Virus record (IMG/VR): IMGVR_UViG_3300021255_000109
Coordinates: 116,779 to 180,778 of that record
Length of the DNA stretch: 64,000 nt
Source of the DNA: a virus
Taxonomy: Duplodnaviria; Caudoviricetes
Reading direction: 5' to 3' (one strand)
Position numbers and translations under genes: made by a program
Notes under the pieces: generated by a model
Told to the model about the DNA's origin: nothing
Database searches by the model: none
What the model saw: the letters and a program-made list of their open reading frames with translations, nothing else
Part shown: in pieces, positions 253 through 64,000 of the stretch
Numbering within the stretch: position 1 is the stretch's first letter
How the letters are laid out: each line of letters starts with the position of its first letter

Positions 253-1312
253 AACAACCGCGGGGTGGAAAGGCACATTCGCTTACGATAAATTAATACA
301 GATATTAGTCTGGATGATTACCGAGCCTGAGAAAGCCTTTGTAATGGGTGGAACCTGGCGTATCCCTGTGTTAGTAAAATTATTGGATAAAAACTTCTTG
401 CAAGATTTGAAGAAAGACGGTACCTATAATGATGCTTCTTTTGATCGTGAATATGAAAGTAAGTGGTCTGGTACTATTGAAGATTCTTATTTCAATGGCG
501 AACAATTTGATCGTAATAGAATTCTTAAGCAGCCTGAGTATGAATACTCCGGTCGATCAAGCGCAAAGAGTTTTTATGTTATCTCAGTCGATGTTGGTCG
601 CAAAGGTTGTCAATCTGTTGCGTGCGTTTGGAAGGTAATCCCACAGAGCGTGGGAGCGCATATTAAATCATTGGTAAATATTGATACTCGTTCAGATGAA
701 CATTTTGAATCACAAGCAATTTGGATAAAAGGGTTACATTATAAATATAAAGCTCGCCGCACTGTCATAGATGGTAATGGCGTTGGTCTTGGCTTAGTTG
801 ACTATATGGTAAAAACGCAAATCAATCCAGATACAGGAGAAACATATCCTGATTTTGGAGTTTATAACGATGATGAATCTTACTATAAAAAATATCGTAC
901 CGATAGTTGCGAACAAGATGCTTTATATATTATCAAGGCTAATGCGCCGATTAACACCGAAGCGCACTCTAATGCTTTAGTTCAATTATCTTCTGGAAAA
1001 GTAAAATTGTTAATAGATGAACGTGTTGCAAAACAAAAATTATTAGGAACAAGAATGGGTTAGAATATGACCCCTGAGCAAAGGGCAGATTATTTAAAAC
1101 CATTTACCTTAACTTCCATATTAAAAGAAGAAATGATGAATTTGCGGGAAGAAAATGAAGGTGTAAACATTATTTTAAAACCTGCAAACAAAAGGATTAA
1201 GAAAGATAAATTTTCTGCATTTGAGTATGGATTATATTATATAAAAGAAGAAGAAGAAAATAAGAAGCGTAAGAAAAAATTTAATGCTAAAGAATGGCGT
1301 TTATTTAATTAA
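253..1312 (+). CDS. terL: Terminase large subunit, 3' exon (one in-frame TAG=Gln at 1061)
   Basis: TTAGWKG coupling motif right after the intron, FDREYESKW, RNase H-like nuclease motifs (ISVDVGR, VIDGNGVG, KKDKFSA); ends TAA 1310-1312; first gene of the head module. Confidence 0.9.
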
Positions 1313-1324
1313 GGGAGGTAGATT

Positions 1325-1681
1325 ATGCGAGCTTCAAGAGGAGAAATAAAGATCGAAGAAATTTTAATAGAATCTGGATTACATTTTGAAGAAGAATATG
1401 CATTTGCGGATTTAAAGAGTACAAGAGGTATACCTTTAAGATTTGATTTTGTTGTGTTTGATGATGATGGTGCTATTGATTTTATAATTGAATATCAAGG
1501 CAAATAGCACTATGAACCTTCTGCCAAATTTGGCGGTAAGCGTGGATTTTATCAACAACAATATAATGATACGCAAAAAAGACGCTTTTGCGCTTTGCAT
1601 GATTTTAAATTAATTGAAATCCCTTATACAGAAGAAGATTTAATTTCTTATGATTATATAATGAAAAAAGCAGGATATTGA
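1325..1681 (+). CDS. Small PD-(D/E)xK / DUF559-Vsr-like endonuclease (118 aa)
   Basis: GGGAGG RBS; S.GE..I, LRFDF, IEYQGK[TAG=Q]HY matching the EYxGxQH motif, D..KR.FC, LIEIPY; ends TGA. Confidence 0.75.
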
Positions 1682-1692
1682 GGAGGTATAAT

Positions 1693-3336
1693 ATGCCAGA
1701 AAACCAAGATCGTTAGTCTCAAATCCGAGATAAAGGTTTTAATATACTCAAAGCTCCTACTTCTGCTACAGAAAGTTATGCTAAATTAAAGATTGGTACA
1801 AGATCATTTGATGATGCAGTTCTTGATTTACATTATTATGACAAGCTTGATCGTCGTGAATTCAGAAGCAAAGAATTCGTTATGACAGCATTAATCAATA
1901 ATGATGTAGAACTATTGCGTGAGATATCTCGATTTTATTATAAGACTAATGGTATCTATCAAAAGATTGTGAATTATTTTGCTTCTATGTATAGATATGA
2001 CTGGTATATGGTACCTGAGATTTTAAACGATAAAGCAAACAATGATAAAATCGTAGATGAGTTCATGAAAACACTAAATTATTTTGATGCAACTCACATC
2101 AAAAAATTGTGTGGTGAATTCGCATTGAGTGTTATTCGTGATGGTATATATTATTGCTATGCCTACGAAGGTGCGCATAGTATTTTGTTTCAAGAATTGC
2201 CTTGGAAATGGTGTCGTTCCAGATACAAAATTGCGGGAGTGCCTGCAATAGAATTTGATATGTCGTTTTTCGATACTAAATTTTTAGATGTCGGATATCG
2301 TATGCGCGTTTTAGATTTATTCCCACAAGAGTTTAAAGAGGGATATATCTTATATAAAAAAGGTAAATTACCACCAGATGATATTTTAACAGATGGTGTA
2401 AAAGGTAAAGGCCGTTGGTATTTACTTAAGCCTGGGTGCGCTTTTTAGATTGGCTTATATGGCTTAAATGGTTTACCATTATTTGTAAATGCGATTCCCG
2501 CACTTATTGATTTAGATATGACCCAAGGTATTGATAGACAAAGACAATTACAACAATTATTAAAGATTATTGTTCAAAAGTTGCCTCTCGATAAGAATGG
2601 TGACTTAATCTTTGATATTGATGAAGCAAGAGATATTCATAATAACGCAGTTGAGATGTTACGCAATGCTATTGGCGTTGACGTTTTAACTACTTTTGCA
2701 GATATTGAAGGCATTGATGTGTCTGATGCTAATAAGACTGTTACTGATGACTCATTAGGCAATGCTGAGCGCACAGTCTATAACTCAATGGGTACGTCTA
2801 AAAACATCTTTAATACAGATGGAAATTTAGCTCTTGAAAAATCAATTTTAGCAGATGAAGGTTCTTTAAGAGATTTAATTCTTCAGTTTGAAAACTTATT
2901 TGATTCTCTTGCGCAGATGCGCAGTACAAATAAGAAGAAATGGAATTTTAGATTCTATATGTTGCATACAACATAGAATAATTATTAGGCGTTATCAAAA
3001 TTATATAAAGAGCAAACTCAGATAGGTTTCTCTAAGATGTTACCTTAGATTGCTCTTGGTCAGAGTCAAAGTTTTATTCTTAATAGTGTATTATTCGAAA
3101 ATGAAGTGTTGAACTTGAGTGCGATTATGATCCCACCGCTTATGTCTTCTACTATGAATATTGAAACTATTCAATAGGTAGGTAGTAAAGGCACAAAAGC
3201 AACATCAAATCAACAAACTTAGGGCAATACAAGTCAAAGTAGCACTTCTGGAACTTAGAATAATGTAGGAAGACCAAGCAAAGAATAGGACCAATTAAGT
3301 GAAAAGACTCTAAAGAATAAAGAAACAGCGAGTTAA
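1693..3336 (+). CDS. Portal protein (547 aa with TAG=Gln)
   Basis: AGGAGG RBS; ORF fragments 1882 and 2518 share one frame joined by TAG codons; position between terminase and protease; size; C-terminal GRP motif; ends TAA. Confidence 0.8.
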
Positions 3337-3350
3337 AAGGAGATATTTGC

Positions 3351-4682
3351 ATGAACACAAGCATTAAAATGAATACTCCTTGTGAGTTAATCAACGTAAC
3401 TCCTTTAAACCCACTTATTTCACATTGTTAGATTAAAGTTTGTTACGTTGGTGAATAGCCAAATAGAAATAATAGTATTATAACTAAAGAAGTGGCAACT
3501 AATATTGCACAATCATTGCCGGGTAGCCCAATTGTGGGTTATTATAATAAAGACAATGGAGATTTTGAAGAACATACTCGTGTTATTGATATTGATAAAG
3601 AGACAAGATCAATTGTTTGGAAAGATCAAACTAAGCCTTATGGTTTTGTTGATTTAAATGCGCAGGTTTGGTTTTAGGATTATTTAGATGGTGATACAGT
3701 TCATACTTATCTTGTAACAGAAGGTTACTTATGGACTGGGCAATATCCTGAAGCGCAACGTATTATAGATCAAGGCAATAATTAGTCTATGGAATTAGAC
3801 ACAAAGACTTTGCGTGGCTCTTGGACACAAAGTGATAATAGCAATATGCGCTTTTTTATTATTAATGACGCTATAATTTCAAAATTATGTATTTTAGGAG
3901 ATGATTTCGAACCTTGTTTTGAAGGTTCTCAAATCACGAAATTTTCTTTTGAAGATGGATTTAATGAAAGATTATATTCGTTAATGACAGAAGTTAAAAA
4001 ATTGAAAGGAGGCAACCTTACAATGGATGAGAATGTAAAGAATGAGGCAGGTTTACAAGCTACTGAACCTACTCAAGAAGAGAATCCTAATCCAGAGGTT
4101 CCTGCTCAGGAGAATGAACCAGCTGAAAATGAGCCTAAGCCAGAAAATAATGCGGCTGCCCCTGAAGCGACCGCAGAACCTGAACTTATTTCTGAACCAG
4201 AACCAGCTGCTGCAGAACCTGAAGCTGATCCTGAGCCAGAAAATCAGCAAGAAAATGAGGGCGAAGGCGTTCAATTTAGCTTAGCAGATTTTCAAAATCT
4301 ATAGGAAAGTTATTCTAATCTTTAGAATGAATTCAATGGACTTCAAACTCAATATAACGAACTAAAGGAGTCTTATGACGCTTTAGTAGAGTTTAAAAAT
4401 ACAAAAGATAGAGAAGATAAGCAATCTATGATTGATAGTTTCTATATGCTTGGCGAAGAAGATAAGAAAGACGTTCAAGATAATATAGATAAGTATTCTC
4501 TTGATGAGATTGAAGCAAAACTCGCAATTATTTGTGTACATAATAAATTAGATTTATCAGGTAAAACAAATAATGAACCAGAAACTACATTTAGTCTAGA
4601 AAATGTAGAAGACGATTCCGAAAATACTAACATTCCTGCATTAGTCAGTGTTCTTCGGAAAAACAGAAAAAACGAAAATTAA
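3351..4682 (+). CDS. Prohead protease / scaffold fusion (443 aa)
   Basis: PNRNNS, PIVG, KPYGFV, GYLW..YPE, QSMEL, LCILG...PCFEGS protease-like region, followed by an acidic E/P-rich linker and coiled coil; fragments 3492, 3789 and 4428 are in one frame. Confidence 0.75.
4023..4682 (+). CDS. Nested in-frame scaffold protein (internal start)
   Basis: AAAGGAGG at 4005-4012, 10 nt before an in-frame ATG at 4023, at the protease/acidic-domain boundary. Confidence 0.6.
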
Positions 4683-4697
4683 TGGGAGGAAAATTAG

Positions 4698-5405
4698 ATG
4701 GCTAAAACACGTTTAGGTAAGGCTACATTTGTTGAGCGTGGCTATGGTCAAGTTGAACCAAACCATCTTTCTGCTCAAAGAACTGGACAGGTATATGCTC
4801 AGTTACCAGCAGCCGCAAATATCGACCTTCTTGAAAATGGCCAATTCGTAAAATACAATTATGAAGCTGGTGTTGTTGATTTCCAAGGCGAGGGCGAATG
4901 GATGTTAGTCTTCAATGAAGTAAAGGTCTATCGTCCAGGCGAGTCAGAGTGTGATTTCGCTATGATTAAAGATAATTATGTTGCTCGTATTTATAGTCCT
5001 ATTGATGGTACTGTTATGGAGCAGCAAACTCAACCACGTTATTATGGTGGTAAAGATGCCGATGGTAATGATATTCCTAAGGTAGTAACTAAGGCAGATC
5101 CATGGGAAATGGATTCTACTGATAACCCATTTGCCGCTTTATTTGATTACGGTGGACCAAAGGCTATGCCTACAAATACAAAAATGGTTCCTCGTGTTCT
5201 GAAGACAAATGTTGGCGATATTTTTACTACAAATACAATCATGGCTACTGCTGCTCCTGCTATTGGCGCACATTTCCATGTTGGTGCTGATGGATACTTA
5301 ACTGCTGGTGATGGCGCTGGCGGAATCGATCCTACATTCCAAGTAGTAAAGAATTATGACCTTGGTGATCGCCAAAGAGCTGTTAAACTTATGAGAATTA
5401 ACTAA
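4698..5405 (+). CDS. Head decoration / minor capsid protein
   Basis: GGGAGG RBS; lies immediately upstream of the major capsid gene; LENG motif; no TAG codons. Confidence 0.6.
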   Translation: MAKTRLGKATFVERGYGQVEPNHLSAQRTGQVYAQLPAAANIDLLENGQFVKYNYEAGVVDFQGEGEWMLVFNEVKVYRPGESECDFAMIKDNYVARIYSPIDGTVMEQQTQPRYYGGKDADGNDIPKVVTKADPWEMDSTDNPFAALFDYGGPKAMPTNTKMVPRVLKTNVGDIFTTNTIMATAAPAIGAHFHVGADGYLTAGDGAGGIDPTFQVVKNYDLGDRQRAVKLMRIN

Positions 5406-5422
5406 TGAAAGGAGATAGAGCA

Positions 5423-6553
5423 ATGTTATTAAAAATTGAAGATCTTGTAAAGCTTGCGAAGATCGCAGCTCATGCTAATCCCTCTACTCCTGTTGCTTAC
5501 AGCTTTAATGGAGAGAACTTTAGCTATAATGAAGTACAGGATACTCTTCGTGCTCAATTTGAAGAGTTAGCTCCTGACTATCGCGGATATAGAGAAAACA
5601 AGAATACAATTTTCCGCATTATTGAAGAGACTCTTTCTGAAATCGTTCCAGAGAGAATTAAACAAAATTATGAGCAGTTTGCTGAAGTTAAGCACTATGC
5701 TCAAGGCGATAAGCCTATTTTCCGTAGAAAGACAAACATCCACAACCGCAATCGTGGTAAGCAGTTCGTGACAAGAGTCGGTCTGGCTGGTATCTATGAA
5801 GTTTGGAAGCTTGGTTCAGCACAAGAGAGCTTCGAAGTTCCAACTTCTGCTATTGGTGGTGCTGCTCAGATTGGATTCGAAGAGTTCCTTGACAAGCGTG
5901 TTGATTGGGCTGAATTAGTAAATATCCTTTATGAGGCAATTGATGATTTAGTATTTGAAGAAATCGGTGCTGCTCTTGGCGAGGGTATTAATCAGCTTCC
6001 TGCTGTAAACCGTGTAGTTGCTAATGATTTTGATGAAGCTACTTTTGATGCTTTATTAAATCAAGCAAAGATGTATGGTAATGTTACTATTTATTGTACA
6101 AATGAATTTGCTGTTAAGATGATTCCGAAGGAAGCTTGGAGATACACTGAAGCTATGAAGGATGAACTTTACAGAACTGGTCGTTTACAAGGTTATAAGG
6201 GCGAAAGAATTGTTGTTCTTCCTAACGCTTATAAGACTGCTTTTGCACAAGAGAAGGTTATTGATCCTAGCCTTTGCTGGATTATTCCATCTGGCGCAGA
6301 TCAAAGACCTGTAAAGGTTGCTTTTGAGGGTGATCTTTATACTAATGAATTTGAGAACTATGACTGGTCTCGTGATATTCATATGTACGAGAAGGTTGGT
6401 GTTTCTTGCATGATGGATAATGCTATTCACGTATACAAAGATACTAGTTTATCTAAGACTGGTGTATTCAACTTAAAGGATAATGTTACTAACCCTGTTG
6501 ATATCAGAACTCCTGAGGATGGTGGATCGAACCAGGGAAACCAGTAGCCGTAA
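5423..6553 (+). CDS. Major capsid protein (376 aa; ends ...GNQ-Q(TAG)-P-TAA)
   Basis: AAAGGAG RBS before ATG 5423; size, synteny and high-expression codon usage; stop TAA 6551-6553 under code 15. Confidence 0.85.
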
Positions 6554-6930
6554 CAGCTTCTAAACTTGCTACCGCACCTGATGATGCGAACAAAGCTACA
6601 TCTCAAGCTAATCAGGACGCTGTTACAGTAACACAAAATGGTAACACTATTACCATTACCGGTAGCCTTGATGCATTAAATAGTTTTGCTTCTACGAATC
6701 CTGCACAAGGCAGTGGTAAGTGGATTGGTTTAGATTTAAATACTGGACTTGACACAATTGTTGGTGCTACATGGGGAGATTCTTATAAATTGACTCAAGA
6801 AGATGTTGATGAAGCAGCTTCTGTAGGACTAGGTGCTGGTCACATTATTTTCTGGACTAAGGCCGAAGATTTACCAAAGACTATTAAAGTAAACGGTAAG
6901 TCTTACACTGTTGAATTTGTTGAAGGCTAA
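6535..6930 (+). CDS. -1 frameshift C-terminal extension of the major capsid protein (~130 aa, beta-rich, possibly Ig-like)
   Basis: Slippery heptamer G GGA AAC at 6535-6541. The -1 frame is open (PVAVTASKLATAPDD...IKVNGKSYTVEFVEG) to TAA 6928-6930. It has no ATG or RBS and an in-frame TGA at 6514 just upstream. Confidence 0.85.
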   Translation, partial: GKPVAVTASKLATAPDDANKATSQANQDAVTVTQNGNTITITGSLDALNSFASTNPAQGSGKWIGLDLNTGLDTIVGATWGDSYKLTQEDVDEAASVGLGAGHIIFWTKAEDLPKTIKVNGKSYTVEFVEG

Positions 6931-6963
6931 TTCATAAATTATTAATTTTATATATATTTTGAG

Positions 6964-7003
6964 TAAGGGGAGAATGGGGAAGTTCCCCTTCTCCCCTTAT
7001 TTT
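6964..7003 (+). terminator. Intrinsic terminator after the capsid genes
   Basis: TAAGGGGAGA...TCTCCCCTTA hairpin followed by TTTT. Confidence 0.75.
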
Positions 7004-7031
7004 CAGTTAAGAGAAAAAGGAGATTGAAACA

Positions 7032-7631
7032 ATGGCAACATTAGAAAGATATTTTTTAGTTACAAATAGAAGCGCAAGTAGAGTGCATTATTCTGTGCCT
7101 GAGCTTGGAATAAAAAGTCGTGATTTCCAGCCAGGAGAAACTAAGAGAATTAGTTATTCAGAGCTTGAAGGTTTAAGCTACTTACCTGGTGGCGTAGAAC
7201 TTATTAGAGATTATTTACTCGTAAAAGATGAAAAAGTGCGCGAAGAGTTTATTGGTCATACTGAACCTGAGTATAATATGACTGTAGAAGAAGTTAAGGA
7301 ATTGATTCTACACGGATCGCAAGATGAGTGGCTAGATTGCTTAGATTTTGCGCCAGAGGGCGTAATTGATTTAATTAAGGAATTAGCCGTATCACTACCT
7401 TTAACAGATACTCGCAAGATGGACGCATTTCTGGAGAAGAAGGGTACTAATTTAGCCCGCATGATCCAGGCTAAGAGAGAGGAAGAAGCAGAGCGCGCAG
7501 CCGCTAATCAAGAACAACAAACAACTCCTCAAAGAAGAGTTAAACCTGCACAAACAACTGAAGCTGTAAATACTGTAAGAAGAACCTCAGGATCAAAATA
7601 TAAAGTAGTAAATAAAACCGCACAAGAGTAA
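7032..7631 (+). CDS. Hypothetical head-associated protein (199 aa)
   Basis: AAAGGAG RBS; intact ORF after the capsid gene. Confidence 0.7.
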   Translation: MATLERYFLVTNRSASRVHYSVPELGIKSRDFQPGETKRISYSELEGLSYLPGGVELIRDYLLVKDEKVREEFIGHTEPEYNMTVEEVKELILHGSQDEWLDCLDFAPEGVIDLIKELAVSLPLTDTRKMDAFLEKKGTNLARMIQAKREEEAERAAANQEQQTTPQRRVKPAQTTEAVNTVRRTSGSKYKVVNKTAQE

Positions 7632-7653
7632 TATAATCAAAAGGAGGCGTTAT

Positions 7654-8271
7654 ATGGGAACACCATTTAAAGATATTTATAATCGCTTTCTTGGAAAAAT
7701 TACTGACGATATGTATATGGAATTAACTCCAAAAGATACAGTTAAAGATTTACAACGTTTACTTATTAATGCAATACCCGATTTTGAATTTCCAAGAACA
7801 GATCTTGGAGATTATGAAATCAAAGTCACTCGAATGCGCGAAGATGAAGTAACTGAAGATGATTTTATTATTGGTGTTATTTGGAATGAATTGGAAGATC
7901 CAGAAATACCAAACATACCAGATGTTATTGTTGAGCAATCAACTTTTGCAAATGAATTAACTTCAGAAGAAATAAATATTTTAGCTATTCTTATGATGAT
8001 AGGGTGGTTGCAGAGACAAGTTACATCTATTGAAAATGTTAGAATGAAATATAGTGGTGCTGATTTTAAAATGACTTCTTAGGCTAACCATTTAGCTAAA
8101 TTGTTATCCTTATTATCTGAATGTCATCGTCAATCGCATCATATGCAAAGACTTTATAAAAGAAGAAGACCTAGCACCGAAGAAGATTTAGAGGTTACTA
8201 AAAAGACAACTGGACCTTTTGCTTCTAACTGGGATGTCTTTAAATATGGAGTTTATAATAGTGGTGACTGA
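7654..8271 (+). CDS. Putative head-tail adaptor (205 aa)
   Basis: AAAGGAGG RBS; T.F..IY..FL.KI N-terminus; LT.EEI.ILA.LM; S[TAG=Q]ANHL; ends TGA 8269-8271. Confidence 0.6.
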
Positions 8272-8572
8272 TAATTTCCAAATTACTTATTCTAAAAATT
8301 CAATAGATCAGAATGTAACGCGTTTAACTAACCAGCTTTGGAAATTAATTCCAATGCGTGAGCATCATGAAGATTGGGAAAAACAACTTGATACAGTTAA
8401 TATTGAAATTGCAGGATTAGGCATTATGTTTGCGGCGATCCCGCAATTTCTCTGTTTACGCGCAAAATTAGAAGGTTTAAAAGTATTAAGTGATACTGCT
8501 TTTGATTTATATAGAAAAACTGTATTTGAGTGTATCAGTTTATTACAAGAGGTAAAGAAAAATGTCAGATAA
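8261..8572 (+). CDS. Hypothetical neck-region protein (~103 aa)
   Basis: GGAG plus GTG start overlapping the previous stop; ends TAA; start approximate. Confidence 0.6.
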   Translation: MVTDNFQITYSKNSIDQNVTRLTNQLWKLIPMREHHEDWEKQLDTVNIEIAGLGIMFAAIPQFLCLRAKLEGLKVLSDTAFDLYRKTVFECISLLQEVKKNVR

Positions 8573-9683
8573 ACCAAAAATGTATAATACTGCTTAGCAG
8601 CTTATGTCGGGTCGATTATTTGGCACTCCTGATGGTGATACGCAAAATGCAGAAGCTGAACAAAAATTTAAGCTACCAACCTTCTCAGTAGAACGGCTTA
8701 ATGAAATGAACAAAGATTTGCTATATCATGGCGGTCCAGGTCAGCAAAGCCGTATGATTCGAGATAAGCGAAGAACATTAAATAGAGCATTATTATATTC
8801 ATATCAAGGTGCTTTTGTAAAGAAGATACCCCATGAAGGTGAAGAGTTTATGGAGGATGGTGAGGAAGGCATGTTAATTCGCGCACTCATAAATCCTGAT
8901 AAACTCAAAATGGATTATGATGATAAAATCATATCTGTGGGGTTTGAACATAAATTCAAGCAAGGCGATGTTTTTGAATGGGTTAATACTAAGTCCTACT
9001 GGATAGTAAGACTTTAGGATTTAGATGAATTGGCATATTTTAGGGGTGAAATCCGTAGATGTGATTATACAATCGCATGGAAGGATGGGGAAGGCAACGT
9101 TCACAGCACGTATGCTGCAATAAGAGGACCAGTGGAGACTAAAATTAACTATATTCAGAAGCATTCAATTAGTATAGATACTCCAAATCATTCATTAAAT
9201 ATTTATATGCCTAAGACTAAATATACTTTAGAGTATTTTAAACGTTATGCTAAATTCTATTTATAGGATTTAGAAGATGGCGATACGAATATTTGTTGGA
9301 GAGTAGAGGCGACTGATTCCATTTCTACTCCTGGTATACTAGAGTTAACTGCAGTTGAATATTACGCTAATGAGTCGGAGGATGACTTAGAGAATGGAAT
9401 TGCGGGAGGCTTAATTGTCCAAAATGTTGAGCCAGAAGTAGAAGATACTAAAAATACTATTGTTGGTAATGTATTTATTAAGCCTAAACAAGAAGTAGAG
9501 TATTATTTTGATGGACCACTTCGCGCACATTGGAGTTTTGACAGTAAACTACCTATTAAAGCTATGTTAAATACTGATGATATTCGTAGGATTCGAATAC
9601 AATGGGTATCTAATTATAGCGGATAGTTTGAATTAAAATATGGTGATTATACTAAAACTATTGTAGTAGAATCACTATTTTGA
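8562..9683 (+). CDS. Putative head-closure / neck protein (373 aa)
   Basis: GAGG RBS, ATG 8562; fragments 8604 and 9030 joined by TAG; F..GD.F.W....W.V motif; ends TGA. Confidence 0.55.
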
Positions 9684-9699
9684 GTAAAAGGAGTATTAC

Positions 9700-10299
9700 A
9701 TGAAGAGATTGGTTTATTAGTATCCTCGATCAAGCTTTCTTTCTGTTGATAAAGACATGAACTTAATCATGGAAAAATTGTTTGCTAATTAGAGGTTGAA
9801 AAAATTATTATATTATACGACAAGGGACGCATTAGATCAACCAAATGTATCTGATGAATAGACAATAGAAATGGTTGGTAAAAATATAAAAAATGTACCT
9901 AAATTATATGTTGATAATAGTGTATTAACTTATATAATTGTAAATTTTGATAATTTTACTCCAAATCGTACCAATCCAGAATTTAGAGATAATATTATTG
10001 AATTTGATATTATATGTCATTTTGATTAGTGGACTTTAAAAGACTTTCAATTACGTCCATACAAAATTGCGGCTGAGATTGATTCAATGTTTAATGATTA
10101 GAAATTAACAGGCATTGGAGAAATTCATTTCTTAGGTGCAAGTCAAATTTTATTAACCGATGAATATGCTGGCTTATGCTTAATGTATGAAGCTATACAT
10201 GGGGAAGAAGATAAGAAAGACGCACCAGTTGGTGCAGATGATGGAGATATCATTGAGAATTTCAATGGTGTCTTTAATACTAGACCTTGGTAGAAATAA
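9700..10299 (+). CDS. Putative tail terminator / completion protein (199 aa; absent from ORF track, 6 TAG)
   Basis: AAAGGAG RBS; LKKLLYY, FDIICH...W, RPYKIAAEIDSMFN, GIG; ends TAA overlapping the next ATG. Confidence 0.65.
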
Positions 10300-11036: not shown

Positions 11037-11059
11037 AAATACACAAGGAGGAATAGACC

Positions 11060-12076: not shown

Positions 12077-12082
12077 TAAAAT

Positions 12083-40715: not shown

Positions 40716-40717
40716 TT

Positions 40718-52173: not shown

Positions 52174-52178
52174 AGTAA

Positions 52179-52225: not shown

Positions 52226-52239
52226 AAGAAAATATTACT

Positions 52240-52271
52240 GGATAGAGAGACACAAGTCTCTCTATCCTTTT
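52240..52271 (+). terminator. Intrinsic terminator-like hairpin
   Basis: GGATAGAGAGAC-ACAA-GTCTCTCTATCC followed by TTTT. Confidence 0.75.
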
Positions 52272-52300
52272 AGAAAATTTATAGAAAGGATGACAAACAA

Positions 52301-54232
52301 GTGATTACTTCTATTAATACTGATAATAGCAATGATTATAGAGCACTGTTTCAATCAGCTTATGATTTCTTAAAAGCTAATAAGAGTGCGCTTAGTGCTG
52401 ATCGCCAAGCCTCTATTGACAATATGACAGGAATCACTTCAGTTCAGCAGTATTTCTCTCACTTAAGAGATTTACTTGATTTAGCTGATCAGGGCGGTAA
52501 GAAGTTCTTAATGCTGCCTTTAGATGAGCCAGTATTTGAAATTGATGCTGACAAACGTGAAATCACTGTTCCTGCTGTCTTTAAAAAGAATGGTATCAGC
52601 GTTCAAGGTGATGAGATTGCTGAGAGTTTAATTTTTAGAATTAACCGTTTCTTTGATTATGCTGACTTAGACAATATGACTATTCAGATTCAATGGGAAA
52701 ACGCGAACAAAGAACAAGGTTTATCTAATATCTATGTAAAAGATAATTCTAAGAGTGCTGATTACCTGTATTTTATGTGGCCTTTAACAGAAGAAATTAC
52801 CAGATATCCTGGTACAATTAAGTTCTCTGTTCGTTGCTACAATGCTACAGGAAATACATTAGCATATAGTTTAAGTACAAAGATTGCTGCTGCAACTATT
52901 AATGCTGGACATGACTACAACGTTGAGAACTGGACAACTGGTATTGACGATGCTACCGCTCAATTTAACAACAGTATTCAGAATAGTAAGAATACGGCTG
53001 CTGAAGACGCACTTGCTCCTTATTATTTAGTTAACTTAGATGATGAGACCGGAGAGGGCGAAAACGCAGACTATAATAATGGTCAAGTTCTTGAGGCTTA
53101 TATAGATGAAACTAATCCTTATCAAACACTTAGAGTTGAAGCTACATCTAATGATGCTGGTACAATCAGCTATAAGTGGCAGTATAGAGACCTTTTAGAG
53201 ACAACATATACTGGCGGTTTAACATATGATCTTGCAGAAACAGTAGAGTATATTCCTACTACTGATGAAGCTAAGGTTGACCATAAGCTATATTATAAGC
53301 AATCTGGCGATAATTATGTGCCGGCTGAGTTCGAAGTAACTGAAGGCGTACAATTATATGAGAAGACTTCTACATATAAGGTTCAATATCATGCAGTTGG
53401 TAAGAACACTGTTACTCTTGAAGATGGCGTAATGCCTCATGTAGTTGGACAGTATAAGGCTATTGCTCGTAATACTGTTGGTGATAACTATGAAGAGACC
53501 GATTCTGTTACTATCGTATTCCCAAGTCCTGAAAAACTTGAGTTTACCGAAACTGGTGATTTAAGTAATAATTATTTCTTAAATAATAATGGCATTGGTT
53601 CTATTTCAACAGAGGTTGAAATTGATGAGCGTGGTGCTAAGGCAACTTATGATTGGTTATTTGCAAATAGCCCAACAGGAGGATTCACTCCAATTGACCA
53701 GTTAGACGAAGCAGAACAGGCTAAGTTATCAGCTGAAGGCAATACTTTAACTATCAACAATAAGCCTGGATATTATAGAGTTATTGTAAAATCTACTCGT
53801 AACTATGATACTATCCAAAAGCAGTCTAACGTTTGTAAAGTAACTGGCGCACTTGCTGCTCCTACTATTGTTACTCCTGTTACAGATACTGCTGTATCTT
53901 CAAAGTATGGTACTGCTCAACTTGTTATCACTATTGCTCCTTATGCAAATGATCTTGAGTCTGAGAAGGTAACATATTAGTGGTATAACGATAAGGATGA
54001 GGCATTAGAAGGACCTCAAGCTGCAGGTGAAGTTGGTACTAACAATACTATCACATTCAGCGCTCCTAAGGGCGATCGTAATGGTTACTATTGTAAGATT
54101 CGTAACTGGATGGGTGAGACCTTTGCTGAGACTCGTTCTTATGACTTCTCTGTAAACCCATTCGAGCCAGAAACACAAACTCCTACTCCTCCAGAGCCAG
54201 AACAACCTGAAGAGCAAGAACCATAGGGATAA
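52301..54232 (+). CDS. BppU-like baseplate protein with C-terminal Ig-like domains (643 aa)
   Basis: AAAGGA plus GTG start; D..AE...F.I.R.FD..DL, W.L....T...G.I.FS.R; ISYKWQ, TYDW, TY[Q]WY...YYC Ig signatures; ends TAG-GGA-TAA. Confidence 0.65.
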
Positions 54233-54257
54233 TTCATAAGATAGGAGGCATAAGTAG

Positions 54258-54854
54258 ATGATTACAATTTCTACAGAATACTATCGTAATCTGTATAAAA
54301 TTTAGCAAGATATGAACTTGCCAAGTCTAGCAATTTTGCTTCCATCTACCGAAAACATTTACGAAGTTGATTTGAATACAAGGAAAATTGAAGCTCCAGA
54401 GTTTTTAAGTAACTATACCGATCATGCTGCTGAGGTTATCTATTTTAAATGTAATAGATACTTCGATTACATGGATCTGGCTTCTTGTGCTATTGTAATA
54501 CAATACAAGAATGCCGCAGGAGAGAATAGAATTTATCCTGTTCCTTTCGTAGATGTTGCTACATGCTCTCTGGAAAACAAGATGCTTATTCCATGGTGTG
54601 TAGATGGTAATGTGACTGCACAAGCTGGAGAGGTTACGTTTTCTATTCGTTTTTATAAAATTGATGTTAATGGCGCAGCTTTACAATATAGCTTGGTAAC
54701 ATTACCGGCGAAGAGCCAAATATTAGAAGCTATGAATGTTGTTGAAGATGATGCAGAACCTTTTGTATTTACTCCTTCACAATATGAAGAGTTAGTTGCG
54801 CGAATTCAAGCATATGAACAGAAAAATGATTTGACATGGATTGTGTTAAATTGA
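54258..54854 (+). CDS. BppU-like baseplate protein (198 aa), paralog of the upstream N-terminal domain
   Basis: AGGAGG RBS; DHAAEVIYFKCNRYFDYMDL and VT..AG.V.FSIRF; one TAG; ends TGA. Confidence 0.65.
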
Positions 54855-54858
54855 CATG

Positions 54859-54896
54859 ATAGGGGAAGAACTTCGGTTCTTCCCCTATTTTTTTTT
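54859..54896 (+). terminator. Intrinsic terminator with cUUCGg tetraloop
   Basis: ATAGGGGAAGAAC-TTCG-GTTCTTCCCCTAT followed by a long T tract. Confidence 0.9.
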
Positions 54897-54898
54897 AT

Positions 54899-54945
54899 GG
54901 GCAAAATACTTTAACCTTACTTGATTAGATTTTAATTACAATAGA
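54899..54945 (+). promoter_or_regulatory. Conserved intergenic motif copy 5
   Basis: GGGCAA at 54899, TTTTA ending at +35, TAG at +43. Confidence 0.65.
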
Positions 54946-54973
54946 TAATTATGATAAAGGAGGTATTAGTCTT

Positions 54974-57900
54974 ATGGCATAGGGCGATAAAATTCGTTTT
55001 CGATAGGGATCACGCTCTTCAGTAAATACTACTGCTAAACAAGCTGGTCAATTATTATTTGCAACCTATGAAGATGAATTACTTACAACGTCTAGTAGTG
55101 CGGAGAGTTTCGTGCAAGGTGACATTTATTTTGATTTAAGCGAAGACGTTGGGAATACTCCCGGGGTGCGCATTAAATTAGCTAATGATGTCGATAAGGC
55201 TAGAACACTTTTTGCGGGAACGACTTCTACCGTTGATGCCAATGGTCAGTGGACCGCGGATATTGATGGTATTACAAAGCTTTATGATGGGTTAACCATT
55301 GCATTGAAATTAACTACATCATCAAGCATAACTTATAACACATTAAATATTAATGGTTTAGGCCCTAAATTAGTATGGTTTAAAGATAATTATAGATTAA
55401 CTAAATCAATTGAGGCCGGCGCAGAAGTGCTATTAACTTATAGAGTTAACGCAGGCTCTTATACTGTGCCAGCCAATACTTCTGGCGCGCTGACCCCGTC
55501 TGGCACGTATCGCGATGGTTGGATCATGACATATCAGGATGGAGATACTATTCCCTCTGCATATTGTACAAGTCCAGGGGCTGCTGTACAAAAGACAGCA
55601 GAATGTACTGATTTCGTTTTACAACCAAAAAGTTATATTCAGTTAATAGTTAAAAATGCCAATACATCTAGCGGACGTATACAATTAAATATTAATGGTA
55701 CTGGAGATAAAGTAGTTTATATCAATGGTAAAGTTACAGCTTCTAATAATAATACTTTGCCAGCCGGATCATATTTAGTATACTATGATGGCACTTATTA
55801 TCAGATAAGAACTGATGGTTTATTGCCGGGCGCAGGTATTGCGGGAAACGCAGCTACAGCAACAGTGGCAGAAAAGCTAGGCGCAACCGACGGCACGATA
55901 TTAACTAATTTAGGTTCTAATGATGCTCAAGTTTATACTCATGGTGGCAATATTACTCCAGGAGTAACTGGTATCTTAGGAGTAGGTAATGGTGGTACTG
56001 GATCTGGAAGTGTGAGTGGCGCACGTTCTAATTTAGGTTTAGGCAACGGACAAATTTATTATGGTACTTGTAGCACTGGCGCAGGTACAGTAGCAAAAAC
56101 AGTAGTTTGTGATGCTTATCCATATACTGGTCCAACTCTTGGAGATATGATATTGGTTAAATTTACTACAACTAATAGTGGAGCTGTTGGTAATTTAACT
56201 ATGTCTGTAAATGGCACTGATGCTAAACCAATTAGATATATTTATAATGGCAGCATTACTACTATAGCAGCAGCTAATTATTTGAAGGCTAACCAGACTT
56301 ATTTGTTTTATTATGATGGAACCTACTGGGTTGTCCAAATGGTCTATAATACAAATACCGATATTAGACCAGCGGCTTATTGTGACACTGGTGGAAGCAC
56401 TGCCGCAAAGGTTGCATCACATACTGGATATTCTATTTTAGATGATTCTTATATTTATTTTACACTTGTTAGTTCTAATACTGCAGCAAGTGCTTTAACT
56501 TTAAAAATCAATAGTAAAGATCCTAAACCGATTTATATCAATGGTGAAGAATCTTCATCTTCTAATTATACTTTGCCAGCAGGAACTTATATTGTTTACT
56601 ATGATGGTACAGCTTATCATTTTAGAACTGATGGTCAACTTCCTGGACATGTTGGCGCAAGCACTATCACAGGAATTGTCCCAGTTACTCATGGCGGTAC
56701 TGGAGTAGGTTCATTAGCTTCTGGCAAAGCGTTAATTGGTAATGGAACTGGAAATGTAGCTACAAGAGATATTACTAATCTTACTACTGCATCAAGCTCA
56801 CTTACTGCAAATACAAATTTAGTTACAGCCAATACTTTGGTTAATTATGTTGGTTCTACCAATTGGAAAACTGTTGGTACAATTACAACTGGTACGTGGA
56901 ATGGTAGCACAATAGCTATCGCACATGGCGGAACCGGTATGACATCTAATCCAAGTCTATTGGTTAATTTGGCTTCTGATAATGCTGATTCTGTTTTTAA
57001 AGCATCTCCAAGACCTGGTGTAACAGGATTATTGCCTGTTGGACATGGTGGTACAGGCACTGGTAGTTTTACAGCTGGTCATGTTTTAATCGGTAATGGT
57101 GCTGGTGCAATTTAGACAAATGGTAATTTACAATTCGATTCAGAAACAGACACTTTAAAGACAAAGCATATCTCTACAACCGGAGATATAGATATTACTG
57201 GAAATGCTTATTTGCATAATCAGACTTATGCTGATGATATTACTGCAAGCACTTTATTAGTGCAAGGAAATTCTAACTTTATTGTTTCTCCTACTGCGCC
57301 GACCCCGGATGCAGGAGATAGTAGTTCAAAGTTAGCGACGACAGAGTTTGTAACTAACGCGCAGATTGATACTAGTCGTATCACAGGTATTTTACCAGTC
57401 ACACACGGCGGTACAGGTCTGGGCGCACTTGATGCAGGAAAGGTTCTTATTGGTAATGGCAATAATAATGTTACTTTTAGAAGTATCTTTACTCGTACTG
57501 CTGTTGGTGATATAGGGTGGACAAGTGGCGCTAATGCTTTAATTGATTAGAGTGGTTTAGCATATTGGAATGGTGCATATAGTGGCACAAGTTCTAATTT
57601 AAAATATCTTAGCACTGTTACTAAAGGTACATGGCAAGCTTCTACAATCGGAGTCGCATATGGTGGTACGGGAATCACTTCTAATCCATCTATGTTGATT
57701 AACTTAGAGTCAAGCACAGCTGATACTGTGTTCAAGGCTTCGCCAAGACCTGGAGTTACTGGTATTTTGCCAGTAGAACATGGTGGTACTGGCTTAGGTA
57801 ATTTGCCTGATGGTGCTTTATTACAAGGTAATGGACTTGCTGATATGGGTGCGGCAAGTGCGGCTGGTACTGCAACATTACCTATTTATATAGATGAAGA

Positions 57901-60900
57901 TGGAATCCCTCAAACAATTACAAGCTATGAGGGAACCGCAAATGCGGCTACAAAATTAACGACTGGACATACATTTATTACCGATTTAGGAAAGAGTTCA
58001 TCTTCTAATACATCTACTTCTTTTGATGGTACATAGAATGTTCATAATATTCCTATCACTGGAACTTTATTAGTTTCTAATGGCGGTACTGGCTTAGGCA
58101 ATGTTACTGCTAATGCTGTTTTGATCGGTAAAGACGCTTCTGCTTTATAGGCTATTGCAACAAACAATGGTGCGTTTTACGCAACAGCAGCTAATGCTAA
58201 ACCAACATTTGGCACTTTACCAGTAGCGCAAGGTGGTACTGGTGTTACATCTGTTGCCAATATTAAAGCTGGTAAAGATGGAAGTGGTAATACTATTACA
58301 TCTACTTATGCGACTAAGACAGAATTAAATAATCTAATTGCCGCACAAGATGTTATGGTATTCAAGGGTGTTGTGAACAGTGCTAGCGATTTACCAAATG
58401 TTCATGATCGTGGTTGGACATATAGAGTTGGTACTGCTGGTACTTATGTGGGACAAGCCTGTGAAGTTGGCGATATTATTATTTGTACAACAGATCGTGC
58501 AAGCGCAAGTTCATAGACTAATGGAGATTGGCAAGTTATTCAGGCCAATATAGATGGCGCTGTTACTGGACCTTCTGGCGGAGTAAGTGCAGCCAATGCT
58601 ATCGCAGCATTTGGTTCAACTGCTGGACGTACATTAGTTAAAGCACCTGCCGCAGGAGATTCAAACACTCCAATTTATATCAATAGTAATGGTATAGCTA
58701 CTGCAATTAGTTCTTATGATGGTAATTCAGCTACTGCATCTAAATTAAAGGATGGCGCGACTATTGCGATTTCTGGTGGTATTACTGGTACTGCAACTAA
58801 TTTTGATGGTAGTGCAGCGATCTCTATTCCAGTAACAAGTTTAAATCTTAATGCTACTGGATTTACTGTTTCAGGTGTTCTGCCAGTAGAGCATGGTGGT
58901 ACTGGTAATGGTAAATCAAGTTATACGGCTAATCATTTAATATATGCGGCAAGCGCAAGTAAGTTAGATCAAACACCTTATATGCATTTGAATTATACAG
59001 CTGGTACTACAAGTGTAATAGGTAAAGAAGAACTCGTAATAGGAAATAATATTGGTAATGGTACTGCTAATAATGCTCAAGGTATGTTAACTTTATATGG
59101 TAAAGGTACTGCTTGGGATTATTTAGTAAGTGCGGCAACCTCTACTAATCTGACTCATACTATGCCAAATTCTTCTGGCTGGTTAGTTACTGCGGCAACT
59201 GCGGGGGCAGGCGGAACATATAAACCTATTTATGTTTCTAATGCTGGTATTGCAACAGCTGTATCAGATAACCAAGCAAAAGTTGCCTTAGGTTCTGATA
59301 ATGCTGCTTCAGTATTTGCGCAAGCCCCTTAGATCGGTGTTACTGGCGTTCTTCCGATCGTACATGGTGGAACAGGCGGAGGTAGTGCGGCGAGCGCACG
59401 TGAAAGTCTTGAAGTGCCACACCATGGTGTTTATTATGTTAAAGGTACTCAAACAGCGGCAACCGCTACGTGGACTGGTGATTTACCAGAAGTTGCTGCA
59501 TTATATGATGGTTTGACCATTGCTTATTATTTACCTGTTGCAGGCAAGACTGCAGCTACTTTAACATTAACACTTAAAAATGGTGTAGAAACTGAACCAG
59601 AGCCAGTGTATTACACAGGTACTACTCGTGCTACAACACACTACGGCGTTCATTCAGTAGTTTTACTGACTTGGGTTAGTAATGCTTCTTCTGGTATGAC
59701 AGCAGTAGGAACGGCTACTGGAGGATGGTATAGAGCAGATTATAATTCTAATAGTGATACTTATACATCTGCATACTGCGGTACTGCCGCAGGTACAGCT
59801 GCAAAAGCAGCAAGTTGTTCTAACTATTCGCTATTAGATGATAGCTATATACATGTTATTATAGTTTATTCAAATACGTCAGCAAATGCATTAACAATGA
59901 ATATCAATGGTAGAGGTGCAAAACCGATTTATATTAATGGTACCGCATCTTCTGCTTCTAATTATACATTACCTGCTGGTTCTTATCTTGCTTATTATGA
60001 TGGAACTAATTATTATTTTAATACTAATGGAGAATTACCTGGACATATTAATGGTTCTTCTATAACAGGCATTATACCTGTTAACCATGGAGGCACAGGA
60101 TTAGGAAAAACTTCATTAACAGCTAATAGAGTAATTTATGCTTCAAGTGCATCTCAGATGTCAGAAGCAGCTTCACTATATACAACAGGAGCTAACTTAG
60201 CTATTAATAAAACTTCTATTACTTCTGGATATAATTTTGAAGTAAATGGTGCATCTTTGATGGGCGCTATTGTTGCAAATGCGGATCATAACTTTATGAG
60301 CCATGGTAATGAATTTAATTTTATTCCTGCTTTAAGCTCTAATTTAGACGTGCATATTAATTATCGTGGACGTGGAGCGCATACTAATGGAGCTGTTGTT
60401 AGTAGTTATAGATTCCATGATGGTACTTCAAGCTGGGCGCCATTATATTCTGCTCATTTGTATCCAGGAGCAACTAATACATATAATATTGGCTCTGAAT
60501 CATTAAAATGGAATTTATTATATGCGAATACTGCACATTTAAGTGCGGCTAATGTTGGTAGCTTAGATAATACTGGTAGATCTACTTTACGTCAAGGGGT
60601 AGAGATTTATGGTAGTATTGCAACGGCTGATTATTCTGGTGGTGGGTATCATCATGACCATAATAGTATTGTTTTACATGGCGATTCAGCTGGTGTATCT
60701 GGATTATTATTTACATCAAGAGCTGTAGATACTGCTATTAACGCTCCTTCTGACAGAGCATTTATTCAGTATCATGCTCATGGTATTACTACTGCAACAG
60801 CAGAAAATAATAATCCTACTTTAGCTACTACTGGTGAGGTAGGGCGTTTTGTGATCGGTATTGGAAATGATGCCAATGATTAGTTGTGGTTACAAACCTA

Positions 60901-61894
60901 TTCTCATACAGGATTAATTCATTAGATTGGAGCAAGTTCATATGTTATTCCTGATACTGGAAATGCAACAGGTGATGTAGGTAGTGCATCATAGCCGGTT
61001 TATGTTGTTGATGGTGTAATTAAAGCAGCGACCGCATATTCTGGTTTGTTTACCGATTTAACCACTCCTGATAGTACGACTCCAGGTAATACAATGTCTA
61101 TCACTATTGGCGGTACAACTAAAACAGCTTCAATCATCAATAGCGTATCTACTAATTTAACTGCGGGAACAGCTTCAGATGCTCCAAAGTTATCTACAAC
61201 AGTAAATACTGTATAGAGTTCTACAATTACTTTAACTAAGGCTACTACCGGAGTATATGGTGTAACCAAGTTATCAAGTACAGTTAGCGCTTCTGAAGAA
61301 GGATTAGCTGCTACTCCGAAAGGAGTTCATACAGCCGTGACTAATGCGATCAATGCTTTAGATGTTGGTAGCGTTGGTGTTGATGCGGCAATAGGAAATA
61401 GATTTATTAGTATCATCAGTTAGACTGATGGTAAAATTAGTGCGGCGGTTGCTACTAAAACGATTGGCAGTGACTCAAAACCTGTGTGGATTAATGCTGG
61501 TACAATCACTGAATGTGGTAGTATATTTAATGCGGTTGCTTGGGATGCTACAAATAAAAAGATTACCAAGACTGTAGGAACTACTACGTCAGATGTTGTG
61601 CAGTTTGTAGCAGGCAATGCGATCACATTAACTGGCGCCGCAGGTAAATTAACAATTGCTTCTACTGATGAAAAAGTTAAACATACACTTGCAAACACAA
61701 CAAAGTTTTATATCACTGGTACAACATCAAGTACGACAAACACGTCGGGAGATGATTTTGATATCGGAGTATATGTAACAACAACCGCAGGAGAAATTAG
61801 TGCGGTAAGACATTCATATAATGCTAGCGGTTTGGAGAAAGCATATACGAGATATAATACTACAACAGATGCGATAGATTTTATCTTTATTTAA
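54974..61894 (+). CDS. Long tail fibre (~2306 aa) with repeated modules
   Basis: AAAGGAGG RBS; fragments 55112-61894 in one frame; many G(I/V)LPVxHGGTG repeats, repeated YYDGT knob modules, APTP..GD.S...ATT.FV; ends TAA. Confidence 0.8.
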
Positions 61895-61908
61895 GGGGAG
61901 GTAATATT

Positions 61909-63621
61909 ATGAGTTTACAAGTATGGCTTCCCCTTAATGGGGATTTAAACAATTATGGGTTAGATGGTAGTTTAATAGTAACAGCTGACGGCGTAACAGC
62001 CGATAATGCGGGAAAGATAGGTAAATGTTATAGTTTTAATAATACAAGAATTATTTTATAGAGTGAATCATTAAGAAATATTTTTAAAGCTACAACTTCT
62101 TGTTTTTCATTTGCAGCTTGGATCTATTTAAACTCTGATGAGACTGATAGAGTCATTGTTTTTGGTAATTATAACGCTAATCCATTTATTAACTGGGAGT
62201 TATCCGCAGATTGTAAACAAAGATTATGTGCAGGAGGTAGTAGTAATTATGTTGGTTACGGTGCTACATCTGCCGTTCCTAAAACCACATGGACGCATAT
62301 AGCTGTAACTTATGATGGTAGCGGTACAAAGTTTTATACAAATGGAGTATTGACAAATTCTGTAAGTGGAGTAAATACTATTACTGGATTGGTTGGCTCG
62401 GGAACGTTTTGGATTGGGGCTGATGCAAGAACAGGCGCAACAAGACTTAAAGGTAAAATGAATGATTTCAGAGTATATGACCATGCTTTGAGCGCAAAAG
62501 AAATAGAAGAAATTGCGCGCGGACTAGTTGTACATTATAAGTTAGATGATCGTTTTTGTGAAGCAACCACTAATTTAATTACTTCTATTACTTCTGGTGG
62601 ATAGACAACGGTTAATGGAGATTTAGTAACCACTTCAGGTACTAATGCTGATACTTATTTTACTTTAAATCTTAGTGAAAATATTGTCGAAGGGACTGAG
62701 TATACTATTAGTTGCAAAGCAGAGATGCCTGCGAATACAAATTGGATTTTTCCGATTGGAGGACAAGGTAACTCTACATTACAATGGACTTTAACACCAG
62801 GTTATAATACATATACTTTTACAGCCAATAATTTTTCTTTTGGTACTAAAAGATGTTTTATGGATGATTTATCTGGAACAGCCAGATCTAGTGGAATATC
62901 ATGTAAGTTTTATAATTGGCAATTAGAAAAAAAAGACCATGCTACTGGATTCGCGGGATTAGGTATAACAAGAACGGCTTCATTGATTTATGACTCATCT
63001 GGATATAATCATCATGCGGTACCTACTGGAACAATTGCAGTGACTAATCCAAGTGTTCGATATGATGCATGTACATATTTTGTTAATGGTTCGTATTTAC
63101 GATCAGAAGAGAGGCCTGCCGTGTTTTTACCAACTGATGCAATAACTGTGAATTTATGGCAAAAATCTACGTCTTGGTCATAGCCAATTTCTTGTACTGA
63201 AGGTGGTGGATTTAATTTTGAAAATGCATCATCTATTCGTTTTCCTCTTTATATATCAGGAACAGGATACATTGTCGCGACTTCTGGGGTTGCAGCTTCA
63301 GTATTAAATGGATTTTGGCATATGATAACTGGGACATACGATAGACAAAATGTTAAAATATATATAGATGGTGAATTAAAAGCAACTGCTGCTGTAGCCA
63401 CTCCGGCAAATATTTCTTATGCGAATAATTATTTATTTATTGGCGCAGAAGCTGGTGGTAATTCAACAGGTGCGGCAAGTAGCGGTTATACTGGAGATAT
63501 TTCGGATGTTCGTATTTATGCAACTGCATTATCAGACGATGCGATTAAAGAACTATATCATACTAGTGCTACTATTGATAATAATGGTAATGTTTATGCA
63601 AGGGAGGTAATTGAAATATGA
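61909..63621 (+). CDS. LamG / concanavalin A-like lectin domain protein (570 aa), putative receptor-binding
   Basis: GGGGAGG RBS; WLPLNG, WTHIAVTYDG...FY.NG, MNDFRVYDHALS; second copy WHMITGTYD...IYIDG, ISDVRIYATALS. Confidence 0.8.
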
Positions 63622-64000
63622 GTTTAAATATTACTAAAACCGGATAGATTAAAGGCATTGTAGTAGAACCTTTTCTTACTCTCCCTGATGGTTCAAAATG
63701 GTAGCTTCTTTTATTTCATTATGTTGATAAAGGAAATCATTTATTTACATAGAGCAATGCAACTTATAATAACGAATGGGGACTATTTAGTCGATTAAAA
63801 TGGATAAATGATTTTACATATAATAATTTATATGAATTTTATGTGATACAAGATGGAACAATACATCGTTTTACTTAGACTTCACAACCAACTGCAACAG
63901 CGCCAGCAGGATTAACAGTAATAACAGGTAATCCTGTTCAAGGAATTGCAAAAGCGAATCAGTCAAATAGTTATATGGGCTATAGTTCTTGGTGGGGTGC
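63618..64000 (+). CDS. Hypothetical adsorption protein (partial; runs off the window)
   Basis: GGGAGG RBS, ATGA overlap with the previous stop; open with TAG=Q; DGSKW.L resembles the fibrinogen-like DGGGW motif (weak). Confidence 0.6.

Follow-up and report, generated by a model that had tools for sequence, protein, structure and literature searches.

Evidence that a complete tailed phage reads amber codons as glutamine and encodes a long-arm suppressor tRNA

In the tailed phage recorded as IMG/VR entry IMGVR_UViG_3300021255_000109, TAG codons are very probably read as glutamine, leaving TAA and TGA as the only stops (NCBI code 15), with decoding through a phage-encoded tRNA that carries a CUA anticodon, tRNA(CUA). 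We analysed a 64-kb stretch of this phage, hereafter the window, which is the last 64 kb (positions 116779-180778) of a 180,778-bp record that carries direct terminal repeats and is rated 100% complete; the exact terminal repeat measures 107 bp. Positions below refer to the window unless they are given as genome positions. The window has a GC content of 34% and is the late block of a complete tailed phage, encoding packaging, head, tail and fibre proteins. With TAG read as glutamine it holds 31 tightly packed plus-strand genes, the last of which runs off the window end, and its long stop-free frames lie on the plus strand without exception. Recoding of TAG to glutamine was established in gut and rumen phages with suppressor tRNAs by Borges et al. 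(10.1101/2021.08.26.457843), the same recoding was described in phAss-1 and divergent relatives by Babkin et al. (PMC10607447), and Peters et al. (PMC9523058) report proteomic proof of code 15 in crAss-like phages. GenBank includes a 'Caudoviricetes code 15 clade', and the phage analysed here is a well-supported further case of these known code-15 phages.

Reading TAG as a sense codon restores long genes throughout the window. With TAG read-through, stop-free frames of at least 200 amino acids (aa) cover 94% of the window, up from 36% under NCBI table 11; the control values are 37% for TGA and 48% for TAA read-through. The gain in coding density expected in an initial annotation of this DNA, made from the letters alone, therefore appears with TAG read-through only. 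Across ~20,500 codons, the 30 plus-strand genes counted contain 238 in-frame TAGs but are free of frameshifts and of internal TAA or TGA codons. All complete genes end in TAA (22) or TGA (8), in agreement with the earlier description of fragments that stay in frame up to such stops. Four genes described as hidden under table 11 are indeed lost there, their longest in-frame pieces being 52 aa (gene at 9700), 52 aa (10287), 7 aa (40718) and 11 aa (63618). TGA or TAA recoding was considered and rejected: neither gave a gain in the window, the few in-frame TAAs of related phages sit at gene boundaries, and better cover with TGA read-through at genome 90-110 kb looks like small-gene noise.

Local motifs had suggested glutamine to the initial annotation. 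The five TAGs it named (31816, 32890, 1505, 8080 and 53978) lie in frame within the motifs quoted for them, and the protein encoded at 26338 contains the paralogous Q-bearing motifs PFFQVHF (nt 32428), PYLQVYY (32155) and NGQFLGY (32602). The repeats claimed for this protein hold up as short motifs, with TAG where the paralogous motifs have Q, but not as repeats detectable by self-BLAST, which returned none at E<=1e-3; the paralog evidence is therefore confined to short motifs. Ribosome-binding sites (RBSs), claimed for every gene, precede most starts as AGGAGG-type sequences, with exceptions such as 314, 5405, 10287 and 11015. For 11015-12076 and 10287-11036, the starts of the longest open reading frames (ORFs; TTG, no RBS) were probably called too early. 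Relatives have Cys, or the stop of the preceding gene, opposite the TAG at codon 14 of the 11015 ORF, and that TAG may therefore be non-coding. The first gene decile holds 15% of TAGs compared with 9% of Gln codons (Kolmogorov-Smirnov p 0.08), a difference confounded by over-long start calls, and we make no claim of a 5′ enrichment that acts as a translational gate. The idea that TAGs near gene ends are relics of old stops was also set aside, as a comparison of C termini with standard-code relatives gave no clear pattern.

Comparison with related phages points to glutamine as the residue placed at TAG. A portal search of IMG/VR recovered 80 relatives at 43-75% identity, to which we aligned the window proteins by tblastn with X at each TAG. 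Over up to ~3,000 aligned codons, 24 of the 80 relatives lack any in-frame stop, and the remaining loci hold 3-47 in-frame TAGs each with no internal TGA or TAA. Of the 39 window TAG sites that could be scored on the 24 standard-code loci, 23 (59%) show a Gln majority, and the true CAA/CAG sites of the window are Gln-majority in 53% of cases in the same comparison. Among the 612 aligned cells at the 39 TAG sites, 424 are Gln, comprising 304 CAA and 120 CAG codons; because most of these are CAA, two mutations away from TAG, codon proximity does not explain the excess of Gln. A site-level likelihood built from the substitution frequencies of the same alignments places Gln 20.5 log10 units ahead of the runner-up His, and Ser (-34), Leu (-41) and Tyr (-61) trail further behind. 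The reverse comparison agrees, as TAG codons of recoded relatives fall on window Gln at a rate of 0.143 and on window TAG at 0.31; for no other residue does the rate exceed 0.017. A whole-window test used two standard-code genomes, G001 (nearest clade, 69% complete) and G015 (complete), each aligned over thousands of codons with zero in-frame stops. At 91 scorable TAG sites per genome, Gln occupies 39 in G001 and 40 in G015 (43-44%), compared with 48% and 41% at true Gln sites, and leads the next residue by at least 28 log10 units. When the window is divided into three parts, glutamine comes first in every one, including the TAG sites of genes starting between 14400 and 34000 (11 of 38 in G001, 13 of 40 in G015). 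Gln is thus as frequent at TAG sites as at true Gln sites (59% versus 53%; 43-44% versus 41-48%), and this comparison, proposed in the initial annotation, joins coding density in supporting its reading of TAG as glutamine.

The decoding tRNA lies elsewhere in the genome. We found zero tRNAs in the window, and the genome carries a minus-strand array of 33 tRNAs and a transfer-messenger RNA (tmRNA) at 58.9-80.4 kb. Within it is a single copy of tRNA(CUA) (genome 61228-61316, minus strand; ARAGORN; Rfam tRNA model, 55.2 bits), ~55 kb upstream of the window. Where the initial annotation had pointed to a CUA-anticodon tRNA, glutaminyl-tRNA synthetase (GlnRS) or release factor 2 (RF2) in the rest of the genome, the tRNA is therefore present, and no RF-1, PCRF or GlnRS/GluRS domain, hence neither RF2 nor GlnRS, was found in the genome. 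Whole-genome ARAGORN scans covered G000 (the phage itself), G001, G002, G015 and G025, and elsewhere ARAGORN checked places picked by a pattern scan; on this basis, among genomes at least 90% complete, tRNA(CUA) was detected in 12 of the 13 that are recoded and in none of the 7 with the standard code (hypergeometric p ~1e-4). The suppressor is 89 nt long, with a 7-bp acceptor stem, a 4-bp D stem with an 8-nt loop and a 5-bp T stem. Its variable region of 20 nt forms a hairpin and departs from the class I shape, which has a 4-5-nt variable loop. The acceptor end carries an unpaired A1·C72, G2:C71, G3:C70 and G73, and the tRNA also has G10 and U35. The identity set of E. coli GlnRS comprises a weak or unpaired 1:72, G73, G2:C71, G3:C70, G10 and U35, and the phage tRNA(CUA) has these bacterial tRNA-Gln identity nucleotides. 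The tRNA(CUA) genes of relatives show U1:A72, U1·C72, U1·U72 or G1·U72, always with G73, and variable loops that are short in some and long in others; ordinary tRNA-Gln genes of the phage family have A1:U72 and G73.

Direct charging by GlnRS of E. coli supE (glnV) tRNA-Gln(CUA), and of su+3 tRNA-Tyr mutants mischarged with Gln, goes with a weakened 1:72 pair and G73. By established knowledge these tRNAs share the CUA anticodon, weakened 1:72 and G73 with the phage tRNA, and the su+3 mutants are also long-armed. They differ in being host tRNAs altered by point mutation in the laboratory, with partial suppression as the result, whereas the tRNA(CUA) described here is a phage gene serving hundreds of sense TAGs. 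An origin of the suppressor as a copy of a phage tRNA-Gln was considered and rejected, since its identity to the other tRNAs of the genome does not exceed 0.8, an ordinary level that does not demonstrate a recent duplication, and only the acceptor-end features are shared. Rfam found no theta or HDV-like ribozyme after the suppressor tRNA, which is directly followed by an RBS and an ATG. The array also contains a ROOL RNA (RF03087, 341 bits; genome 63691-64315, minus strand) and the tmRNA (tag peptide ARYQYQMAA; genome ~62707-63008, minus strand), and a borderline abiF-RNA match was seen at L082:16317-16353 (in the same contig L082:7691-8315 corresponds to genome 63691-64315). Two tRNA oddities appeared among relatives. 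One is a UUA-anticodon tRNA in a standard-code relative; it would read TAA, yet the aligned genes of that relative showed no internal TAA. The other, in a different relative, is a tRNA-like gene to which ARAGORN assigns an anticodon of 4 nt (taaa). The loci L093:2627-2699 (G018) and L094:277-350, equal to L112:264-337 (G034), cover both.

The long variable arm extends beyond this phage. A pattern scan of IMG/VR returned 50 further contigs, 47 of which (~4 to 195 kb) carry tRNA(CUA), giving 35 distinct long-arm sequences and a class of 88-94 nt; some contigs and relatives carry a short tRNA(CUA) of 73-78 nt, sometimes beside the long-arm one. In an alignment of 36 long-arm sequences, both core pairs of the arm form in every sequence, each showing 10 double-sided changes. 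Position 1:72 is never G:C or C:G in these sequences, the other acceptor pairs are at least 97% paired, and the discriminator is G73 in 28 and A73 in 8. The CTGA loop of the arm is invariant because the search pattern required it. Among tRNAs with a long arm, Mukai et al. (2017, PMC5389517) describe allo-tRNAs, suppressor-like molecules whose acceptor and T stems divide 8/4 or 9/3, and these resemble the class described here in their long variable arm, nonsense anticodon and presence in bacteria and their phages. Their 8/4 or 9/3 split is absent here, where covariation supports a 7-bp acceptor stem and a 5-bp T stem: the fifth T-stem pair is paired in all 36 sequences with 15 double changes, which excludes the 8/4 fold, and U8 is invariant and unpaired. 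A full-text search of phage-recoding papers found no mention of the variable arm, which is not proof that the feature is unreported.

TAG use is genome-wide though uneven, so the initial claim of whole-module recoding stands for the window, while a restriction to that module does not. The late plus-strand block (genome 110.5-181 kb, continuing to 0-10 kb) contains 11.4 TAGs per 1000 codons, where TAG makes up 27% of Gln+TAG codons and 35 of 39 genes hold at least one. It runs on across the 107-bp terminal repeat into genome 1-10 kb, with TAG dependence there too. The minus-strand block at genome 10-58.9 kb, which we take as the replication block, has 3.2 TAGs per 1000 codons, a TAG share of 10% and TAGs in 18 of 43 genes. 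The shares of 27% and 10% indicate that dependence on TAG decoding is graded and is not an on/off switch. The suppressor gene lies in the leftward arm, upstream of the replication block, a position that fits the model of Borges et al. in which late genes wait for the suppressor; any timing effect would be graded, as early genes hold TAG as well. We propose that the suppressor tRNA would be transcribed from the leftward arm, where the tRNA array is followed by replication genes, and that a host enzyme would charge it with Gln, either GlnRS directly or a non-discriminating GluRS followed by GatCAB; we infer host charging with Gln because the acceptor end is Gln-like (A1·C72 unpaired, G73, G2:C71, G3:C70). 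The charged tRNA would then out-compete host release factor 1 (RF1) at UAG, and TAG-rich late genes would be fully translated only once the tRNA is present. Three regions stand apart in codon usage (genome 50145-53218, 57021-58577 and 93222-102128): Gln is encoded there almost only by CAG, with 0 CAA and no TAG, in a genome that is otherwise CAA-rich, which suggests that they are recent imports.

Several points count against glutamine decoding through this tRNA. The amino acid has been inferred from evolution, and we found nothing that blunts RF1. TAGs in 18 of the 43 replication-block genes fit poorly with a clean model of standard early and recoded late genes. Relatives fall in rumen and gut metagenome-assembled genome bins with mixed Bacillota-like labels and in one archaeal bin (bacterial genome records), and the charging route, GlnRS or GatCAB, is a guess. 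Moreover, the 89-nt tRNA(CUA) with its 20-nt arm has a Ser/Leu/Tyr-like shape, so that charging by SerRS is conceivable from sequence alone.

This long arm and the neighbouring tRNA-Ser(UGA), 5 nt from tRNA(CUA), prompted us to weigh a residue other than glutamine at TAG, namely Ser, Tyr or Leu inserted by a class-II-shaped suppressor, or pyrrolysine (Lys-like). A long variable arm is the shape of bacterial Ser, Leu and Tyr tRNAs and we know of no tRNA-Gln that has one; SerRS does not read the anticodon, A73 as in bacterial tRNA-Tyr occurs in 8 of the 36 long-arm sequences, and ARAGORN labels any CUA tRNA 'Pyl'. We nevertheless consider a different residue very unlikely. In the homolog columns the log10 likelihood relative to Gln is -34 to -37 for Ser, -61 for Tyr, -41 for Leu and -24 to -33 for Lys, and on these grounds we rejected decoding as Ser, Tyr or Leu. 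In the tRNA itself, the D arm consists of a 4-bp stem with an 8-nt loop, the acceptor end resembles that of tRNA-Gln, and the covarying 7-bp acceptor and 5-bp T stems are not those of an allo-tRNA.

A host that itself reads TAG as glutamine, with the phage mirroring its code and imposing no switch, has an equally slim chance of being correct. TAGs in the minus-strand replication genes would suit it, and for code 25, phages whose recoding matches that of their hosts have been described (10.1101/2021.08.26.457843). Set against this, a quick portal tree interleaves standard-code and recoded phages; it requires a minimum of 7 code changes, and well-supported branches force no fewer than 4 of these. 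The sister group of the phage analysed here and L005, which are both recoded, is the standard-code clade L002-L004; portal identity to this nearest clade is 73-75%, and in-frame TAGs are absent from it. A tRNA(CUA) gene is present in the phage and missing from its standard-code siblings, and we know of no bacterium in which TAG encodes Gln. Borges et al. predict standard-code Firmicutes and Bacteroidetes hosts (10.1101/2021.08.26.457843). TAG sites of the window genes from 314 to 13739 are common to distant recoded relatives beyond the expectation from Gln conservation (odds ratios up to 6.5), which hints at an old recoding with reversions, although site preference or recombination could give the same pattern. 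That the TAGs are damage, from a decaying defective phage or from sequencing or assembly error, would account for the broken look of almost every gene under table 11 and can be dismissed, as 238 in-frame TAGs come with no internal TAA, TGA or frameshift, the frames are homologous to relatives over thousands of codons, the genome is complete with terminal repeats, and the pattern recurs in dozens of independent contigs, in some of them at identical sites.

With TAG read as glutamine, the phage compares closely with recoded phages already described. It probably belongs to the 'Agate' clade of Borges et al., a match made on genome size, source and mixed codes only; that clade infects Firmicutes and has a mean genome of ~154 kb (10.1101/2021.08.26.457843). 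Like the phage analysed here, Agate and other Borges phages concentrate in-frame TAGs in structural genes, encode a tRNA(CUA), have close standard-code relatives, usually lack a tRNA synthetase, and share its genome size class and gut or rumen source. They differ in that the replication genes are partly recoded here, and in that no RF2 is found here whereas two TAG-recoded Agate genomes are reported to encode one (10.1101/2021.08.26.457843). By portal, the nearest named phage in GenBank is phAss-1 of the proposed Phassvirus (36% identity, 86% cover), and the nearest portals also include those of Enterococcus, Bacillus, Brevibacillus and Clostridioides phages. phAss-1 likewise has TAG-to-Gln recoding in its large terminase, tape-measure and portal genes, tRNA-SUP-CTA genes and no specific synthetase (PMC10607447); it is distant, with a genome of 136 kb compared with 181 kb here and three suppressor tRNA genes compared with one. 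A crAss-like identity, guessed from the giant ORFs, was rejected, because the portal relatives are phAss-1 and the Firmicutes phages EF1, PBC2 and phiCD211 and because a tape-measure protein is present.

The genes of the window, all on the plus strand, follow the order of a late block. Its first 207 positions (1-207) are the 3′ part of a group I intron (Rfam RF00028, 101 bits within the window) that splits the large-terminase gene; the whole ribozyme core spans genome 116743-116985 and scores 106.5 bits at full length. Just upstream of the core, outside the window, lies a GIY-YIG homing-endonuclease ORF (PF01541; locus L234:2499-3308) with 5 in-frame TAGs. The terminase exons are contiguous in the standard-code relatives G001 and G015, and relatives G002 and G025 carry insertions elsewhere in the same gene. 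What had been listed as a first gene at 314-1312 is a genuine coding region with a misplaced start: it is large-terminase exon 2, beginning near 208 after the intron and ending at 1312 (phrog_24618; weakly the terminase phrog_5909), with 74% identity to the contiguous gene of G015 and G001. Its one TAG (ORF codon 250) corresponds to Gln in 24 of 24 standard-code relatives. An HNH homing endonuclease follows at 1325-1681 (phrog_9084, phrog_559), and its single TAG, at 1505, corresponds to Gln in 26 of 26. The portal protein (1678-3336; 552 aa; phrog_2739, E 2e-71) has 9 TAGs, and those at codons 433, 437 and 457 correspond to Gln in 20-23 relatives each.

Downstream, a head and neck block of 14 ORFs with 0 to 11 TAGs each occupies 3351-14330 and includes virion structural proteins at 9700-10299 and 11015-12076, all assigned by PHROG matches; in the gene at 10287-11036, 7 TAG sites correspond to Gln in 20 of 20 standard-code relatives. 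The tape-measure protein (14457-26228; Pfam PhageMin_Tail PF10145, E 1e-29) is 3923 aa long with 71 TAGs and breaks under table 11 into pieces of at most 466 aa; ~1400 of its codons align to G001 and G015, where they are free of stops, and its presence points to a long-tailed phage. The ORF list next gives a tail or fibre-like protein of 2533 aa with 48 TAGs and short repeated motifs (26338-33939), whose longest table-11 piece is 150 aa. Tail or baseplate-like genes fill 33965-44833, assigned by PHROG tail matches and alignments to G001 and G015, with 9 TAGs in 34357-37041, 19 in 37044-40715, 1 in 40718-41068, 5 in 41068-41991 and 9 in 42023-42844, and 0 in both 33965-34351 and 42866-44833. 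Large fibre or adhesin-like genes (Pfam and PHROG matches) span 44959-63621: a 2332-aa protein with BspA-type leucine-rich repeats (44959-51957; 5 TAGs), genes at 52301-54232 (2 TAGs) and 54258-54854 (1 TAG), a 2306-aa protein with a tail-fibre repeat (54974-61894; 13 TAGs) and a Laminin_G_3 protein (61909-63621; 3 TAGs). Several of the tail or fibre-like proteins encoded from 26338 on are 900-2500 aa long. The last gene, at 63618-64000, is open at the contig end, holds 4 TAGs and is hidden under table 11.

Because table 11 fragments this 64-kb block and makes four genes vanish, code 15 is required for any annotation of this phage and its many rumen and gut relatives, and for studies of their host range and protein families. 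Standard-code and recoded siblings at up to 75% portal identity form a dense natural series, and with at least 4 to 7 code changes on the portal tree they offer a good system for how a code change starts and reverts. Recoding itself is already known in gut and rumen phages, and the long-arm Gln-type suppressor may be what is new; tentatively, it could belong to an undescribed structural class that combines a Gln-type acceptor end with a class-II-like variable arm, a possibility to which we give rather less than an even chance. The arm might be what lets a CUA tRNA accept Gln well or compete well with RF1, or it might hide the tRNA from tRNA-targeting defences of the host or of rival phages. 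If true, such roles would explain how code 15 is imposed without a synthetase or release factor of the phage's own. The long-arm suppressor offers a concrete, testable entry into the question of how host synthetases are brought to load glutamine onto a phage amber suppressor.

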